Source: Escherichia coli
Lineage (GTDB): Bacteria; Pseudomonadota; Gammaproteobacteria; Enterobacterales; Enterobacteriaceae
NCBI RefSeq assembly: GCF_009931435.1
Contig: NZ_CP043414.1
Reading direction: 5' to 3' (one strand)
DNA: 64,000 nucleotides
Position numbers: made by a program. Of the stretch, positions 33,001 through 39,000 are shown in pieces; the first letter of the stretch is position 1, and every line of letters begins with the position of its first letter.

Positions 33001-36000
33001 TCCGCACGATGGTTGAAATGATGGAGCCGAACCCCGCCCGCGGCGAGACGATTTGCGATCCGGCCTGCGGCACCGGTGGCTTTCTGGCAACCAGCTATGA
33101 ATATCTACTGGAGAAGTACAGCTCGCTGGAATCCATTCATACCGAGATTGGCACCAACGAACGTGGTGAGCTGGAAGAGCAAAAAATCTTTACCGGCGAT
33201 CTGTTGACCCCGTGGCGTAACCATGTGGATAACAATATGTTCCACGGTTACGACTTTGACACCACAATGTTACGTATCGCCGCCATGAACCTGATTATGC
33301 ACGGCGTGGAAGCGCCGGATATCCACTATCAGGACACCATGAGCCAGAGCTTCAGCACAAACTTCCCGCAGGCCAGTAAAAACGCTTTCAACCTGATTCT
33401 GGCAAACCCGCCGTTTACCGGTTCACTGGACGAAGAAGATATCGACTCCACGCTGTCGGCAATGGTGAAAACCAAAAAAACCGAACTACTGTTCCTGGCG
33501 CGTATTCTGCAAATGCTGAAAGTGGGCGGGCGCAGTGCCACTATCGTGCCGCAGGGCGTGCTGTTTGGCTCCAGTAAGGCGCACCAGTCACTTCGCAAAA
33601 CGCTGGTGGAAGATAACCAACTGGAAGCGGTGATCAACCTGCCTTCCGGCGTATTTAAACCTTACGCTGGCGTGGCGACGGCGATCCTGATCTTTACCAA
33701 AGGCGGTCAGACGGACGAGGTCTGGTTCTACGATCTGCAAAATGATGGCTACAGCCTGGATGACAAGCGTAACCCAATTAAAGACAACGACCTGCCGCAT
33801 CTGCTGGCAAGCTGGAAGCATTACCGTACTTTACGCGGGCTGCCGGTTGATAACTTTATGGGTGAGAAATTAGCCTCGTTGCTTAAACAGCAGCACCCGG
33901 AAGGGATTGATGTTGGCGTTGATTTTAAAGATCGCACGCAGGCGGCGTTTGTAGTTCCAAAAGAAGATATTGCTGCGCAGAAATACGATCTCTCTATTAA
34001 TCGTTATAACGAAGTGGTGTATCAGGCGGAGGAGTATGAAGATCCGAAGGTGATACTGAAACGATTAAAAGATCTGGAAAAAGAGATTCTGGCGGATCTG
34101 GATGAGCTGGAGGGGATGCTGTGAGTTGTCGTTATTTAAAAATTGAGGATTTTTGTAGCACCGGTAGCGGTGGAACACCCAGTAGGTCAAAGCCTGAGTA
34201 TTATGAGGGGGGAGATATCCCTTGGATTAAATCAGGAGACCTTAAAGATTCAAAAATTTATGAAGCAAATGAGTACATTACAGCCGCAGGGCTAGAAAAT
34301 AGCAGCGCGAAAATAGTTGAGAAAGACTCAATCTTAATAGCAATGTATGGAGCCACTGTTGGTCGCTTAGCAATTTTAGGAATTAATGCAGCCACGAATC
34401 AAGCTATTTGCAATATCAGGCCAGATACGACAATTGCTGATATGAAGTATCTCTATTACTTCTTGAAGAGCAAGTTCAGCTATTTTGTCGAAAATGCGGT
34501 TGGTGGGGCTCAACCTAATATTAGCCAAGGATTGATTAAGTCATTAGAAGTTCCCCTACCTTCTTTAGATGAACAAAAGCGTATCGCAGATATTCTTGAT
34601 AAAGCTGCTGGTGTATGCCAAAAACGCGAGCAAGCTATCAAACTGGCTGATGATTTTTTGCGGGCTAAGTTTCTAGAGATGTTTGGAACTCCTGCAAACA
34701 ACATACATCGTTTCCCGAAAGGAACGATTCGCGACTTGGTTGATTCAGTAAATTATGGAACTTCAGCAAAAGCCTCTATTGATTCTGGTGAATATCCTAT
34801 ATTACGGATGGGTAATATAACATATCAAGGTAGGTGGGATTTTACAGATTTAAAATATATTGATCTCAGTGTAAAAGAAAAGGATAAATATTTGGTTAAA
34901 GAAGGCGATCTTCTTTTCAATCGTACTAACAGTAAGGAACTTGTTGGTAAAACAGCTGTGTATGAAGAAGACAGGCCTATGGCATTTGCTGGATATTTAA
35001 TCCGCGTTAGACCTAATTCTATCGGAAATAACTACTATATTTCAGGGTATCTTAATTCCATCCATGGCAAAATCACATTGATGAATATGTGTAAAAGTAT
35101 TGTTGGCATGGCTAATATTAATGCACAGGAATTGCAGAATATAGAGATATTAATCCCACCTAAGCATCTACAAGATGAGTATGAGATTATTTATAAAAAA
35201 ATAAAAAAAGGACTAAGCATTTATGATAAAAGCGCAATGCAACTTCAACTTTTAGCATCAAACCTATCGAATAAATATTTCATGTAAGGTTCATTATGAA
35301 ATTAACTAAACTTGTACTTGAAAATTTCAGATCTGTTAGAGAGCGGCAGGAAATTGATTTTGCACCTGTAACATTACTATTGGGGCCAAACAGCGCGGGC
35401 AAGACTACTATTTTAATTGCATTATTTTATCTTCAACAAATATTAGACCGTGAGCAGTGTGATCCTATATATTTAGAAGCTATGGGGAACAGGCGCATAG
35501 ATGGATTTAGATCTCTAGTCCATAATGGGGATCTGAATAATGTAATTACTATTGGTATCGGTTTCGATCCTGAACAAACAATAGGTGTAGAATATAAAAC
35601 ATATTTAGAAGAACTTGGTGATATTTTCGATATTCATTTTATAAAAATGAAAGACATTGCAGATGAAACTGAAAAGGTTTATGTAGAATTTAAAATCGCA
35701 TGGTCACAATTGCACAGAGCAGCATATATAAAGAACTATGCTGTTTCTATAAATAATGAATTTATTGGAGAGCTAAGTAATGATGAGTATACTAAATCAT
35801 CTTTAGTAAATAGATTGAACTTTACTCATCCGTTGCTTCTTCCTATTGATTATAATTTATGGCTTGAATCTATTGATAAGGAAGGATTAGATACGATTGC
35901 CAGTGAATTTGAAATATCTTTAAATGACTTAATTCCTGGCTTAGAACGTAATAAAAGTGGTGCAACAGAGCGAGTAAAAACTGTTGATTATATATTTGAA

Positions 36001-39000
36001 GAAGATAAAGAAAAACCAATGTTTCCTGTTTTTTTAAAGACGAAAATTGGTGCGTTACCTCAACTGGGAAGAACTGTTGATACAAATTTGAAAGTTTTTG
36101 ATATATCCGAGCCAGTTGAGTATTTTAATCGAGATATAATCACCAGAGTGCTAACGCAAGTTTTTACTTCTCCGTTAGATAAATTAAATAATTATTTAAA
36201 GGCTAGCGTATCTATTGGACCGTTAAGAATTATACCTGATTCTTCATTTACGCCAAATCCTTATCCAGAACAAAATGGATGGTTTGATGGTACATCAGCA
36301 TGGGATAAGCTGTGTTTATCTCAACAAAATGATAGTGATTTGATTAAAAAAGTAAGTGATTGGTTTTCCAATAGAGATAAACTAAACACTAATTATAATA
36401 TATTTAGTGGAGGAGAATTTGATATAAAAACCTCCCCTCAACTTTTAGGTCTGAAAGATAATGTTTACTTCTGTAAAATAGATTCAAGCCAAATGTTATT
36501 TCCAAATCAAGTCGGTGTCGGATTAACTCAGATAGCACCTCTTATTATTGCAGCCAATATAGTTCAGGATGGATTAATTGCTATAGAGCAGCCTGAGCTA
36601 CATATTCATCCCGCTTTACAACTCGCTGTAGGTGATCTGTTTACCCAATATCCCCTTGATGTTAAAAGACCTATGTTTTTAGTCGAAACACATAGTGAGC
36701 ACATTTTGCTTCGAATTTTAAAAAGAATTAGACAAACAACGGACAATGAATTACCTGAATCAAATTACCCAGTAAAACCTGATTTTATATCAGTGATCGT
36801 TTTCGAGGATAATAATGGTTCGACTGTTACTAGGAAAATAGATATTACTGATGATGGTGACTTCAAACAAAAATGGCCCAAAGGTTTCTTCGAAGAAAGA
36901 AGGGGAGAGCTTTTTTAATGTTCTACGAATGCGCCATTTCACCAGAGGCTTTGTTTGAGATCGCAATTGATCGGAGAAATTATCGTGACTTCATAAAAGG
37001 ATTTTCTACGGGCGGTAACTTTCTCTATAGTGAATTACCAAAGCTGAAGAGAAATAAAAAACAATTGCTTGGGCTATTAAATGCTAATCATAGTGAACTT
37101 CAAAAAAAACGATTAGAGGACCTTATTATTTTTTTGAAAAATAATAAGGTTAGTAGGGTTTATGATTATGTTGGTGACATGTCATGGTCAGATAACATCT
37201 CTGCTGTAAATCGAATTGAACAATTTGATCATGTAGTGAGTTCTACTCCTTGTGATAACCTTGATGTAACTAATATAGATGATTTCTTTGGGTTAAATTA
37301 TGCTCGGCAAAAAATTGTTGCTAGAATTGCTGAGGATATGATATCTATAATCTCACGCTTATTAAAAACATCAGAGCATATTATTATAGTTGACCCATAC
37401 TTTAGTGACAAACAAAGATGGTGGAATGTATTTATTTCATTACTTAGCGTTAGTGCTAATAACTCTTATAAAAAAAATTTAAAGATAGATGTTATATTTG
37501 ATGGGAGTAAAGAAAACTCCCCAACGGTGAATTATTTGGCTAATAAGTTGAACCGCGAAAACCTTGTCTTTCCAGACGATTTTAAATTATCAGTAACATT
37601 TAAGTCTTTAACTTCTCGCGAGGGTAATGAACGTCTGCATAATAGATATGTTCTTTCTAATGTTGCTGGAGTTTGTTTCATGCATGGTTTAGATGAGGGA
37701 GAAGGAACGGATGATGTCTCAATTTTGTCGAAAGAGGGATATAATAAAAGATGGGAACATTACACTACGAATAATGTTTTTGATTTAATAGAAGAGCGTG
37801 AAGTTATATGTTAAGTATTTCCCTTACTGTTTTCAATTAAATCCTACAAACTTATTAGGACCCTTTAAAATTTATTCAACACGCCAATAAAAAATCTAAT
37901 TCTATTAATCTTGACCTGGTCTATCAAAATGATAGACCAGGCTTCTGTTATCTACATTACTTCTAGTGAAATAGCCAACCAATCGTCCCTATAAGGCAGG
38001 TTAAATAGTTTTAATTTAGCAAATTTGATAAACAACTCACTCGCCATTACCCCGATTGATCTTCGCATAGTCAAACGGCGTAATCGCTCTCTCCCGATTG
38101 GCATCCAGAAAATCTGCCCACCACTGCAGCATCAGCTTGCGCTCATCCAGATGCTCCGCTTTATGGATATACGCTGCCTGCACTGAGTTACGTCCATGTG
38201 GCTCATCTGACGTTCAGCCGCTTTATCTCGTGCTGTTCTGGTCTCAATACTTCCATGCCGTTGCAATTACCTCTTAAACCATTCCTTACCATTTTCATGT
38301 CTTCGATAAGAAATCTTCATCATGCATGATCGATTTTGTCGATCGATTCGATCGAATTTTCTCTTTTTACCCTGCCTTTTGCATGGTTTTAAAATAGGCA
38401 AAATTACTTGTCATTCGTGGAAAATGATGGCGGAGATAACTGAGCTTAAAAAGTTTCTCTTGTCTCCGTCACTTGCCATACCAGCCAGGAAAAGAAGATG
38501 TCAGCACAAGAAAAAACAGTACAGATTGATTCTTTTGATGCGAAATTTTTAGATATAAATACATTAAGCAAGCTTATCTATGAACGTAAGAGTTTTGTGA
38601 TAGAAAATGTTTCCGATGTTAGTGAAACGGTAAAAAGAGTGGAGCATGAAATAGAGAAAAGGAAATTAAGTTGTCGTGTATATACTGAGTACAGGAGCAC
38701 AGCTTTAGCTGGTTCTTTATGGTCACCAACCGTAATTCTGGGAGTGGCGAGTGCAGTAGCAATAGGTGTTCATAATTTATCTACATGGAACCCCGATTAT
38801 GAAATCGGTAAGAACTATATTAAACGGAGATTATCGGTAAAATATAAAAAGGCAGAAGTATTGTGATCGGTTACTCCAGTGCCCCTGCCTGTTCGTATTC
38901 TGGTGAGGTTGTATACACATAATTTCAGGCTGGCGTTCACGTCCTCACTGAGGAAATATATTTATTTTGTGTAGAGTAAAAGTCTGGCTTCCGTAGTGTG

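Follow-up and report, generated by a model that had tools for sequence, protein, structure and literature searches.

A predicted NsnA-less relative of Menshen NsnB/NsnC, with a PLD-fold partner, behind a type I restriction-modification locus of Escherichia coli

The Menshen system is composed of NsnA, NsnB and NsnC (Millman 2022; PMC12065111), and its NsnB/NsnC part is the closest described relative of the two genes reported here, an ABC ATPase gene and the gene of a partner protein found in a stretch of 64,000 nucleotides of the Escherichia coli chromosome (contig NZ_CP043414.1, assembly GCF_009931435.1), hereafter called the window. In Menshen, NsnA (ParB-DUF262 plus ParBDB) is encoded immediately upstream of NsnB, defines the loci and is presumed to be the DNA sensor of the system (PMC12065111). 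NsnC joins an N-terminal inactive PIN-like (inPIN) domain to a C-terminal effector domain of variable kind (BECR, Toprim, PB-PLD1 and others). One class of NsnC combines the inPIN domain with a phospholipase D (PLD)-type domain, PB-PLD1, which carries an acidic residue after beta-2 and an H-D-R motif and has MIT_C, NucT and Tdp1 as its structural neighbours (PMC12065111). The AlphaFold 3 (AF3) models of Menshen show an NsnB4-NsnC2 assembly in which the DUF3696 tails clamp the inPIN domain (PMC12065111).

In the window, the ATPase and its partner are encoded directly behind the hsdR, hsdM and hsdS genes of a type I restriction-modification (R-M) system, so that hsdS stands upstream of the ATPase gene where Menshen has NsnA. 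Because the NsnA gene is missing, the pair is by definition not a Menshen system. Sequence comparison, structural models and analogy point to an NsnA-less, PLD-armed relative of Menshen NsnB/NsnC, for which a function in defence is proposed. The explanation that we favour, and hold to be rather likely, is that of a self-contained two-gene anti-phage module with the architecture of NsnB/NsnC minus NsnA, carried in the cargo slot of a mobile type IB-like R-M unit. What appears to be new is the NsnA-less combination of an ABC ATPase with a PLD-fold protein; the general kind, an ABC ATPase plus nuclease defence module, is already known. The features of the pair are the following.

35296-36918, + strand: NsnB-like ABC ATPase, 540 aa
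35383-35406, + strand: Walker A motif GPNSAGKT, with G30, N32, G35 and K36 invariant in the family
35581-36195, + strand: hypervariable insert of the ATPase, residues 96-300
36511-36702, + strand: signature-like GxG-Q (406-412), Walker B IAIEQPE (428-434) and H-loop ETHSEH (464-469)
36778-36915, + strand: DUF3696 tail, residues 495-540, a beta-hairpin and terminal helix, ending ...DGDFKQKWPKGFFEERRGELF
36918-37814, + strand: partner, NsnC-like putative effector, 298 aa
36918-37322, + strand: predicted PIN-like domain of the partner, about residues 1-135
37323-37811, + strand: predicted PLD-fold domain of the partner, about residues 136-298, with a single HKD-like motif
37392-37394, + strand: D159 in IIIVDPYF, Asp or Glu in 100% of the family
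37638-37661, + strand: H241-N-R243-Y-V-L-S-N248, HxK(x)4D-like, with Arg replacing Lys

Comparison of the pair with Menshen and other described systems

The sequence of the ATPase places it among the ABC ATPases of the SMC/Rad50 type, and it ends in a DUF3696 tail. Pfam matches were obtained with AAA_15, AAA_23, SMC_N and AAA_21 and, weakly at the C-terminus, with DUF3696 (E 0.0077). Among the PADLOC models PDC-M55A (1.4e-40) and Menshen NsnB (3.2e-37) ranked highest, followed by HEC-03B (7e-25) and AriA, with AbiLi at 2e-10; NsnB is therefore the best model bearing a system name. With Menshen NsnB it shares the AAA_15 core, in which GxG replaces SGG and E-x replaces the D-E dyad of Walker B, as well as the DUF3696 tail and an SMC head as the top structural neighbour. 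Other ATPases encoded beside homologues of the partner also match NsnB best (3.5e-57 over the entire NsnB profile in L008, 1e-43 in L002 and 1.6e-41 in L019, the L numbers denoting loci used for comparison).

In an alignment of 26 ATPases encoded beside partner homologues, the invariant residues of the core are G407, G409, Q412, E431, P433, E434, H438, P439, E464, T465, H466, S467 and E468, and those of the last 20 residues are G521, F523, W527, P528, G530, F531, F532, E534 and E538. The C-terminal extension past the H-loop, to which an initial annotation made from the sequence of the window had drawn attention, measures 70 residues and corresponds to the DUF3696 tail, which Pfam detected at E<=1e-3 in 17 and at E<=0.1 in 25 of the 26 ATPases. 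On average, two members of the family are 16% identical over the insert (96-300), 55% over the C-terminal core and 50% over the tail. The hypervariable insert may be regarded as a candidate sensing surface, and the tail is a predicted docking site for the N-terminal domain of the partner by analogy with the AF3 models of Menshen (PMC12065111). The AlphaFold2 (AF2) monomer model of the ATPase (pLDDT, the predicted score of the local distance difference test, 79; predicted template modelling score, pTM, 0.83) has a low-confidence stretch at residues 193-242 and a pLDDT <50 in its last 8 residues.

The partner has no significant match in Pfam, NCBIfam or PADLOC, and a profile search against PDB sequences with it returned nothing. 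The initial annotation could place no motif in this protein, which holds at the level of these three sequence collections, and the profiles suggested there (DUF4435/TOPRIM, HNH, RloB and AbiLii) gave no match to it. The top matches below threshold were Pfam nSTAND3 (E 0.079) and NCBIfam VPA1262_N (0.0057, far under its cutoff), and the weak PADLOC matches were NsnC (E 0.0027) and mad2 (0.009). The fold is predicted confidently by the AF2 model (pLDDT 96.9, pTM 0.92) as an N-terminal PIN-like domain followed by a C-terminal PLD-fold domain. Like Menshen NsnC, the partner is encoded directly after the ATPase and joins an inactive-PIN-like N domain to a nuclease-type C domain. Set beside PB-PLD1, a comparison made with the published description only, it also has the fold neighbours and the site of an acidic residue plus H-[DN]-R in common.

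Across 90 diverse members of the partner family, the residues that hardly vary are D159-P160 (VDPYF), H241, R243, G257, P9, P41, R65 and W90. Within the motif, His is found in 98% of the family, Arg in 100% (never Lys) and Asp or Glu at position 248 in 81%, the consensus being HNRYILTD. PLD superfamily nucleases such as Nuc, NucT, BfiI and Zucchini, whose fold the model finds in the partner, have HxK(x)4D as catalytic motif, whereas the partner family has H-N-R-(x)4-D and the E. coli protein H241-N-R243-(x)4-N248, with Asn248 where the family has Asp and with the spacing of HxK(x)4D retained. The PIN-like domain shows no invariant acidic set among the 90 members, and in E. coli Ser occupies a site of this domain which is acidic in 90% of the family; judged from these positions, the domain is probably catalytically inactive. 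The family itself is large. An exhaustive HMMER search gave 811 partner clusters at 50% identity (E<=1e-3), the best-listed members being nearly all about 300 aa and full-length, and AFDB50 contained 269 structural homologues, nearly all named 'Uncharacterized protein' among the matches listed. Homologues with 74-93% identity are present in Kosakonia, Citrobacter and Salmonella, and a search of phage genomes with the partner gave no match.

The pair differs from Menshen in the long hypervariable insert of its ATPase, in the motif H-N-R as against H-D-R and in its companions, which in this family are usually type I R-M genes and an RtcR-like sigma-54 activator. Neither the window nor any of about 40 related loci showed an NsnA gene, the PADLOC scan covering the upstream proteins of ten loci. 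The DGxQR motif of DUF262 is present in no real open reading frame (ORF) of the window, the gene upstream of the ATPase in L008 is GyrB/ParE by Pfam, and the precomputed Pfam annotation of four independent metagenome contexts contains no DUF262.

The initial annotation had read the two genes as an ATPase-plus-effector pair of the defence type, with PARIS, Septu, AbiL and Rlo as kin. The general reading is borne out by the PADLOC matches of the ATPase (NsnB, PDC-M55A, HEC-03 and AriA) and by the predicted PIN-like/PLD fold of the partner; of the named systems none is the closest, Menshen being so, and the partner is neither TOPRIM/DUF4435 nor HNH. PARIS was set aside since neither PADLOC nor Pfam gave an AriB, Toprim or DUF4435 match for the partner, whose predicted fold is PIN-like plus PLD, Septu since the partner has no HNH match (PADLOC, Pfam), and AbiL/Rlo (RloA-RloB) since the ATPase reaches just 2e-10 with AbiLi and the partner has no AbiLii or RloB match and not a Toprim fold. 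The effectors of PARIS (AriB) and Gabija (the C-terminus of GajA) are TOPRIM and that of Septu (PtuB) is HNH, whereas the effector proposed here is PIN-like plus PLD, and the similarity of the ATPase to AriA, PtuA and GajA is below that to NsnB. PARIS, whose name is expanded in its description as 'phage anti-restriction-induced system', couples an ABC ATPase with a nuclease, and Ocr is its trigger. PDC-M55 is a three-gene cassette (FAM_00005 >> FAM_02935 >> FAM_00004); here there are two genes and the ATPase alone matches.

The pair resembles HEC-03 and the PDC-M candidates (Payne et al., bioRxiv 10.1101/2024.01.29.577857), which likewise consist of an ABC ATPase plus small effector and were found by their position in or beside R-M, BREX or Hma loci. 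HEC-03, an ABC ATPase plus a PIN protein in defence loci, protects experimentally and both of its genes are required (bioRxiv 10.1101/2024.01.29.577857). Its effector lacks a PLD domain and is an active PIN of the VapC-like kind. None of the HEC or PDC models matched the partner; HEC-03 was rejected as an identification because the partner misses the HEC-03 PIN model, lacks invariant acidic residues in its PIN-like domain and has an additional PLD domain. The pair stands behind hsdS and not between hsd genes, and presumably would not count as 'embedded' in the screen of Payne et al. PrrC, RloC and the Rlo proteins share with the pair the character of ABC-ATPase-based effectors physically tied to type I R-M loci, PrrC being the model case of a latent nuclease that stands in reserve behind a type I enzyme. 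PrrC, which is embedded in EcoprrI and activated once Stp of T4 inhibits EcoprrI (PMC12707154), lies between the hsd genes of a type IC system, unlike the pair. In PrrC and RloC the anticodon nuclease is fused to the ATPase within one polypeptide, and their nuclease parts are unrelated to the partner by sequence or fold.

The R-M backbone and the exchangeable cargo slot in E. coli

Five ORFs follow each other on the + strand, hsdR, hsdM, hsdS, the ATPase and the partner, with gaps of 63, -4, 8 and -1 nt, and this layout had been given exactly to the base in the initial annotation. The locus lies on the chromosome in an island at tRNA-Sec (selC), together with a tyrosine recombinase and a dGTPase-type defence gene. 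The features around the pair are listed below.

29010-32426, + strand: hsdR-like restriction subunit, 1138 aa, EcoAI/EcoEI (type IB)-like (NCBIfam, Pfam)
32439-32458, + strand: terminator-like hairpin in the 63-nt hsdR-hsdM gap, 8-bp stem with 6 GC pairs and a T-rich tail (consensus scan)
32490-34124, + strand: hsdM methyltransferase subunit, 544 aa (NCBIfam hsdM/MAD2-like; RefSeq 'type I restriction-modification system subunit M')
34121-35287, + strand: hsdS specificity subunit, 388 aa (NCBIfam PRK09737 2e-35)
Parts of hsdS, + strand: first target recognition domain (TRD1), about 34121-34600; conserved centre, 34594-34686; second (TRD2), about 34690 to the end
34687-38032, + strand: AT-rich exchangeable cargo block, made up of the second half of hsdS, the ATPase, the partner and the 3' flank
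37915-37941, + strand: candidate operon terminator, a hairpin with a 12-bp stem about 100 nt past the partner stop (consensus scan)
38037-38221, - strand: tyrosine integrase remnant bounding the unit of R-M plus cargo (RefSeq pseudogene)
L045:9819-12186 and L046:10005-13119, other E. coli strains: alternative cargo behind the same hsdRMS

From its sequence the R-M backbone is type I and family IB-like, with an EcoEI_R_C/EcoAI-type HsdR, an HsdM and a two-TRD HsdS. The NCBIfam scores of hsdR (PRK11448 2e-99; EcoAI/FtnUII family 1e-68) are both under the curated cutoffs and allow an assignment at family level only, and an hsdR homologue at 78% identity has the Pfam domains HSDR_N, DEAD, ResIII and EcoEI_R_C. 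RefSeq labels the pair as 'AAA family ATPase' and 'hypothetical protein'. The start of the partner is the ATG at 36918 inside TAATG, in agreement with RefSeq and all homologues; its longest possible ORF would begin at 36873.

The pair is probably transcribed with hsdM and hsdS. The consensus scan found no terminator-like site between hsdM and the partner and an AAGG Shine-Dalgarno sequence precedes the ATPase start; therefore the co-transcription with the R-M genes that had been assumed at the outset is plausible for hsdM-hsdS-ATPase-partner. The junctions of 8 and -1 nt and the recurrence of the hsdS-ATPase-partner junction across many phyla also speak for it. The hairpin at 32439-32458 hints that hsdR and hsdM-hsdS-ATPase-partner may form separate transcripts.

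Separate acquisition of the module had been suspected from the AT-rich DNA beginning at hsdS, and both points are supported. The G+C content of 0.49-0.56 over hsdR and hsdM drops to 0.30-0.37 from mid-hsdS (about 34500) to about 38000. In blastn comparisons with E. coli strains having other cargo, homology stops at 34686 in the centre of hsdS and returns at 38033, while hsdR and hsdM are 95-99% identical in the same strains, which gives the locus a mosaic structure. An hsdM at least 95% identical is found in 424 E. coli genomes and the pair in 273 only. Strain RIVM_C037134 has the same hsdR and hsdM followed by PDC-M01 (a PtuA-like ATPase plus HNH), the ATPase of which is weakly related to the one described here (25% identity over 174 residues). 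The slot of strain hubt-sl is filled by a CN-hydrolase-family gene, an 88-aa ORF and the 5'-nucleotidase-like PDC-S08, which is also seen between hsdS and the ATPase in L009 of Photobacterium.

The specificity gene takes part in the exchange. TRD1 of HsdS is unrelated between the window (34121-34600) and strain FORC 064 (L001:13835-14300), whereas TRD2 differs at one residue; this pattern is read as TRD swapping, and different DNA target sequences are to be expected for the two strains. With TRD1 different, TRD2 near-identical and the breakpoints at 34686 and 38033, the exchange unit is therefore TRD2 plus ATPase plus partner. The integrase is full-length in the metagenomic relatives L002-L004, and homology resumes at the remnant in L046 and L002. 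By analogy, a slot behind hsdRMS with swapped cargo is the pattern to be expected of interchangeable defence cargo.

A pair at least 95% identical is present in 273 of 5426 complete E. coli genomes, on the chromosome every time, and both ORFs are intact (>=80% query coverage) in 250 genomes. The ratio of nonsynonymous to synonymous substitution rates (dN/dS) in comparison with Enterobacter is 0.19 for the ATPase and 0.18 for the partner, and 0.02-0.03 for hsdR and hsdM at similar dS. Purifying selection acts on both genes of the pair, which nevertheless evolve faster than hsdR and hsdM. In strain cq9 the pair is broken by an IS5-family element. Disruption by an IS5-family (ISKpn26) or IS1-family element was seen at L044:9783-11690 and in NZ_CP145655.1, the loss of the pair being tolerated.

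Other genes of the window were also recorded. An intact 417-aa ORF at 21140-22393 (- strand) matches the PADLOC dGTPase defence model at 1.4e-109 over most of its length, and strains FORC 064 and EC2 have a counterpart whose annotation gives a frameshift. At 23852-26858 there is a 4-nt overlap between a thymidylate synthase gene and a 314-aa ORF of no assigned family, beside a convergent gene for a 360-aa XRE-family protein (PD-Lambda-2_B 3e-30, weak capP and RmrA), and an 87-aa MazG-like gene lies at about 27.3 kb; the cluster of thymidylate synthase, XRE and MazG-like genes may be a further defence or nucleotide-pool module. At 52166-53881 (+ strand) a 571-aa ORF with a TnsB match (3e-37) suggests a Tn7-like element in the GC-rich region of about 49-57 kb.

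Related loci, proposed mechanism and competing explanations

The related loci include 36 from species-representative GTDB genomes, found with a 12-sequence partner alignment; the locus-search pattern Ex[LI]HNRY... may tilt this sample to one subfamily. The gene order is ATPase then partner in each locus where both are recognisable, and in nearly all loci examined the two genes are adjacent, mostly with an overlap or a gap of a few nt. The same strand carries hsdR-hsdM-hsdS upstream in 20 of about 33 informative loci (about 60%), and in about 14 of these 20 at most about 45 nt separate the hsdS stop from the start of the ATPase. The R-M-linked loci range from Gammaproteobacteria to Acidobacteria, Planctomycetota and Calditrichales, with HsdR 33-98% identical to that of E. 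coli. About 13 loci hold the pair with no R-M nearby, and the pair also occurs on plasmids. In L008 (a Desulfobacterales metagenome-assembled genome, 4554-11397) the pair lies between a GyrB/ParE-type gene (presumably parE) and parC, with no R-M, activator or mobile-element genes in view around it, and in L050 it lies among housekeeping genes.

An RtcR-like CARF-AAA+-HTH sigma-54 activator (PADLOC RtcR_PspF2) is present in 23 related loci, where it heads the operon, ahead of hsdR or immediately ahead of the ATPase. Just past the stop of the RtcR-like gene (mostly 6-40 nt), 13 of 18 loci have a TGGCAC-N5-TTGC sigma-54 promoter, which is perfect in four, the background of the pattern being about 0.17 per kb on both strands. 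Examples are the following.

RtcR-like genes among loci L009-L040: L034:681-2177, L018:45-1085 and L037:6543-8051
Sigma-54 promoters: L034:2186, L018:1092, L019:4681 and L027:4774

The independent annotation of the Azotobacter plasmid pAcX50d gives a sigma-54 regulator, hsdM fragments, hsdS, an AAA ATPase and a hypothetical protein. The association of RtcR-like activators with R-M systems was noted by Makarova 2014 (PMC4012209), and RtcR-led superoperons with type I R-M were described alongside CoCoNuTs (PMC11090510); neither paper describes the ATPase plus PLD pair. Most of the non-enterobacterial relatives have in common with these superoperons that activator and sigma-54 promoter come first, often with type I R-M in between. 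The related loci were not identified as CoCoNuT superoperons, McrBC-like genes being found downstream in two Pseudoalteromonas loci only and unrelated or housekeeping genes elsewhere. In those two loci (L012:10935-14198 and L014:10935-14168) the partner is followed, on its own strand, by McrB-like and McrC-like genes, which lengthens the apparent superoperon to activator, hsdRMS, ATPase, partner and McrBC-like genes. L019:4699-10912 has two tandem ATPase-partner pairs behind a single RtcR-like gene. In the first of these pairs the ATPase is NsnB-like and 811 aa long, and the other protein (371 aa) resembles the partner only distantly.

Complex formation, trigger, substrate and defence phenotype of the pair are proposed here by analogy with the described systems. 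The SMC-like ABC ATPase would oligomerise, by homology to the AF3 models of Menshen and the solved complexes of Septu, PARIS and Gabija, and its invariant DUF3696 tails would clamp the dead PIN-like domain of the partner, keeping the single-motif PLD domain monomeric and inactive. The hypervariable insert would read a phage cue, coupled to ATP binding or hydrolysis, and an ATP-dependent rearrangement would release or re-orient the partner. Because only one HKD-like motif is present, the PLD domain would have to dimerise for an active site, pairing two H-x-R/D sites to cut nucleic acid as in Nuc, NucT, BfiI and Zucchini. The outcome would be the destruction of phage nucleic acid or an aborted infection.

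Several observations weigh against such a self-contained module. The PADLOC NsnC model barely picks up the partner, which has no significant match among the PADLOC models. In the PLD motif, Arg replaces the Lys of catalytic PLDs, and the structurally closest eukaryotic relative with the Arg variant, MIT_C of MITD1, is not a known nuclease. Asn248 and other departures at conserved sites of the N domain could mean that the enterobacterial version is weakened. Finally, given the linkage of about 60% to type I R-M, the pair may not be autonomous.

This linkage leads to the main rival of the autonomous module, a guard of the restriction enzyme in the logic of PrrC and PARIS, with the R-M complex in the place of NsnA. 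The ATPase would then monitor HsdM, HsdS or HsdR, or bind Ocr or Stp, and the PLD effector would be unleashed only when restriction is blocked. Precedents are available in PrrC with EcoprrI and Stp (PMC12707154) and, as far as its description goes, in PARIS. The frequent position of the ATPase just behind hsdS argues for this explanation, as does the diversity of the linked R-M systems, which indicates that the link is not one inherited block, and so does the joint travel of TRD2 and the pair in E. coli. On the other hand, the loci with no R-M nearby, such as L008 and L050, speak against a guard, other genes separate hsdS from the pair in L009, L026, L030, L040 and L049, and the unrelated cargo in the same E. 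coli slot favours a permissive landing site over a dedicated partnership. We consider the guard unlikely. A further extension, that the R-M complex took over the role of DNA-facing sensor from NsnA and that the RtcR-like CARF/sigma-54 activator, sensing infection-derived RNA fragments, switches the unit on in most lineages, is speculative and seems to us slightly less probable still. If it were true, the pair would be the dedicated second echelon of an inducible restriction system, and the PLD nuclease would fire on stalling of the restriction complex or on its inhibition by anti-restriction proteins.

In an addiction or stabilisation module, the PLD protein would be a toxin and the ATPase its antitoxin-like counterpart, serving mainly to keep the small integrase-R-M island and not to defend against phage. 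The location at the end of an integrase-bounded mobile unit, the pairs on plasmids and the Pfam family AAA_21, named as 'putative AbiEii toxin, type IV TA (toxin-antitoxin)', would be in keeping with this role. However, the pair is kept where the integrase is a remnant and in the chromosomal housekeeping contexts of L008 and L050, and the break of the ATPase in strain cq9, with downstream sequence still present, is tolerated, unlike the expectation for a constitutive toxin, although the partner gene there is apparently also disrupted. The role is thus improbable as an alternative, and stabilisation and defence are not mutually exclusive.

Hardly more credible is a decaying, non-functional remnant in enterobacteria, whose activator was lost and whose conserved sites were substituted. 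The RtcR-like gene has no tblastn match in the window and is absent from L007 of Enterobacter too; matches to the sigma-54 promoter pattern are no commoner in the window than in shuffles, and L007 has none. The partner has S8, F35 and N248 in place of the conserved D/E, R and D, and some strains have IS1 or IS5 insertions. Decay is opposed by the intact ORFs of 250 genomes and the dN/dS of 0.18-0.19, by the retention of D159, H241, R243, G257 and all ATPase motifs, and by the close homologues in Kosakonia, Citrobacter and Salmonella. A canonical three-gene Menshen with NsnA displaced elsewhere in the genome would account for the NsnB-like and NsnC-like features, but is very improbable in view of the absence of PADLOC NsnA, DGxQR and DUF262 from the sets of proteins given above, the GyrB/ParE gene upstream in L008 and the definition of published loci by NsnA immediately upstream of NsnB (PMC12065111).

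Significance of the pair

The pair described in this study has a partner family of 811 clusters from many phyla with no Pfam, NCBIfam or PADLOC model, the AFDB/UniProt homologues bearing hardly any label other than 'Uncharacterized protein', and defence-finding tools which require both genes probably miss the pair. The Menshen transducer-effector pair evidently can occur without the DUF262 sensor, behind a type I R-M system and, in most lineages, an RtcR-like sigma-54 activator. With the pair in 5% of complete E. coli genomes, a system is at hand in which it can be asked if linked abortive modules guard restriction enzymes. The slot from the centre of hsdS to the integrase is a practical hunting ground for more defence cargo, and the findings suggest that ABC-ATPase defence modules act as mix-and-match units.

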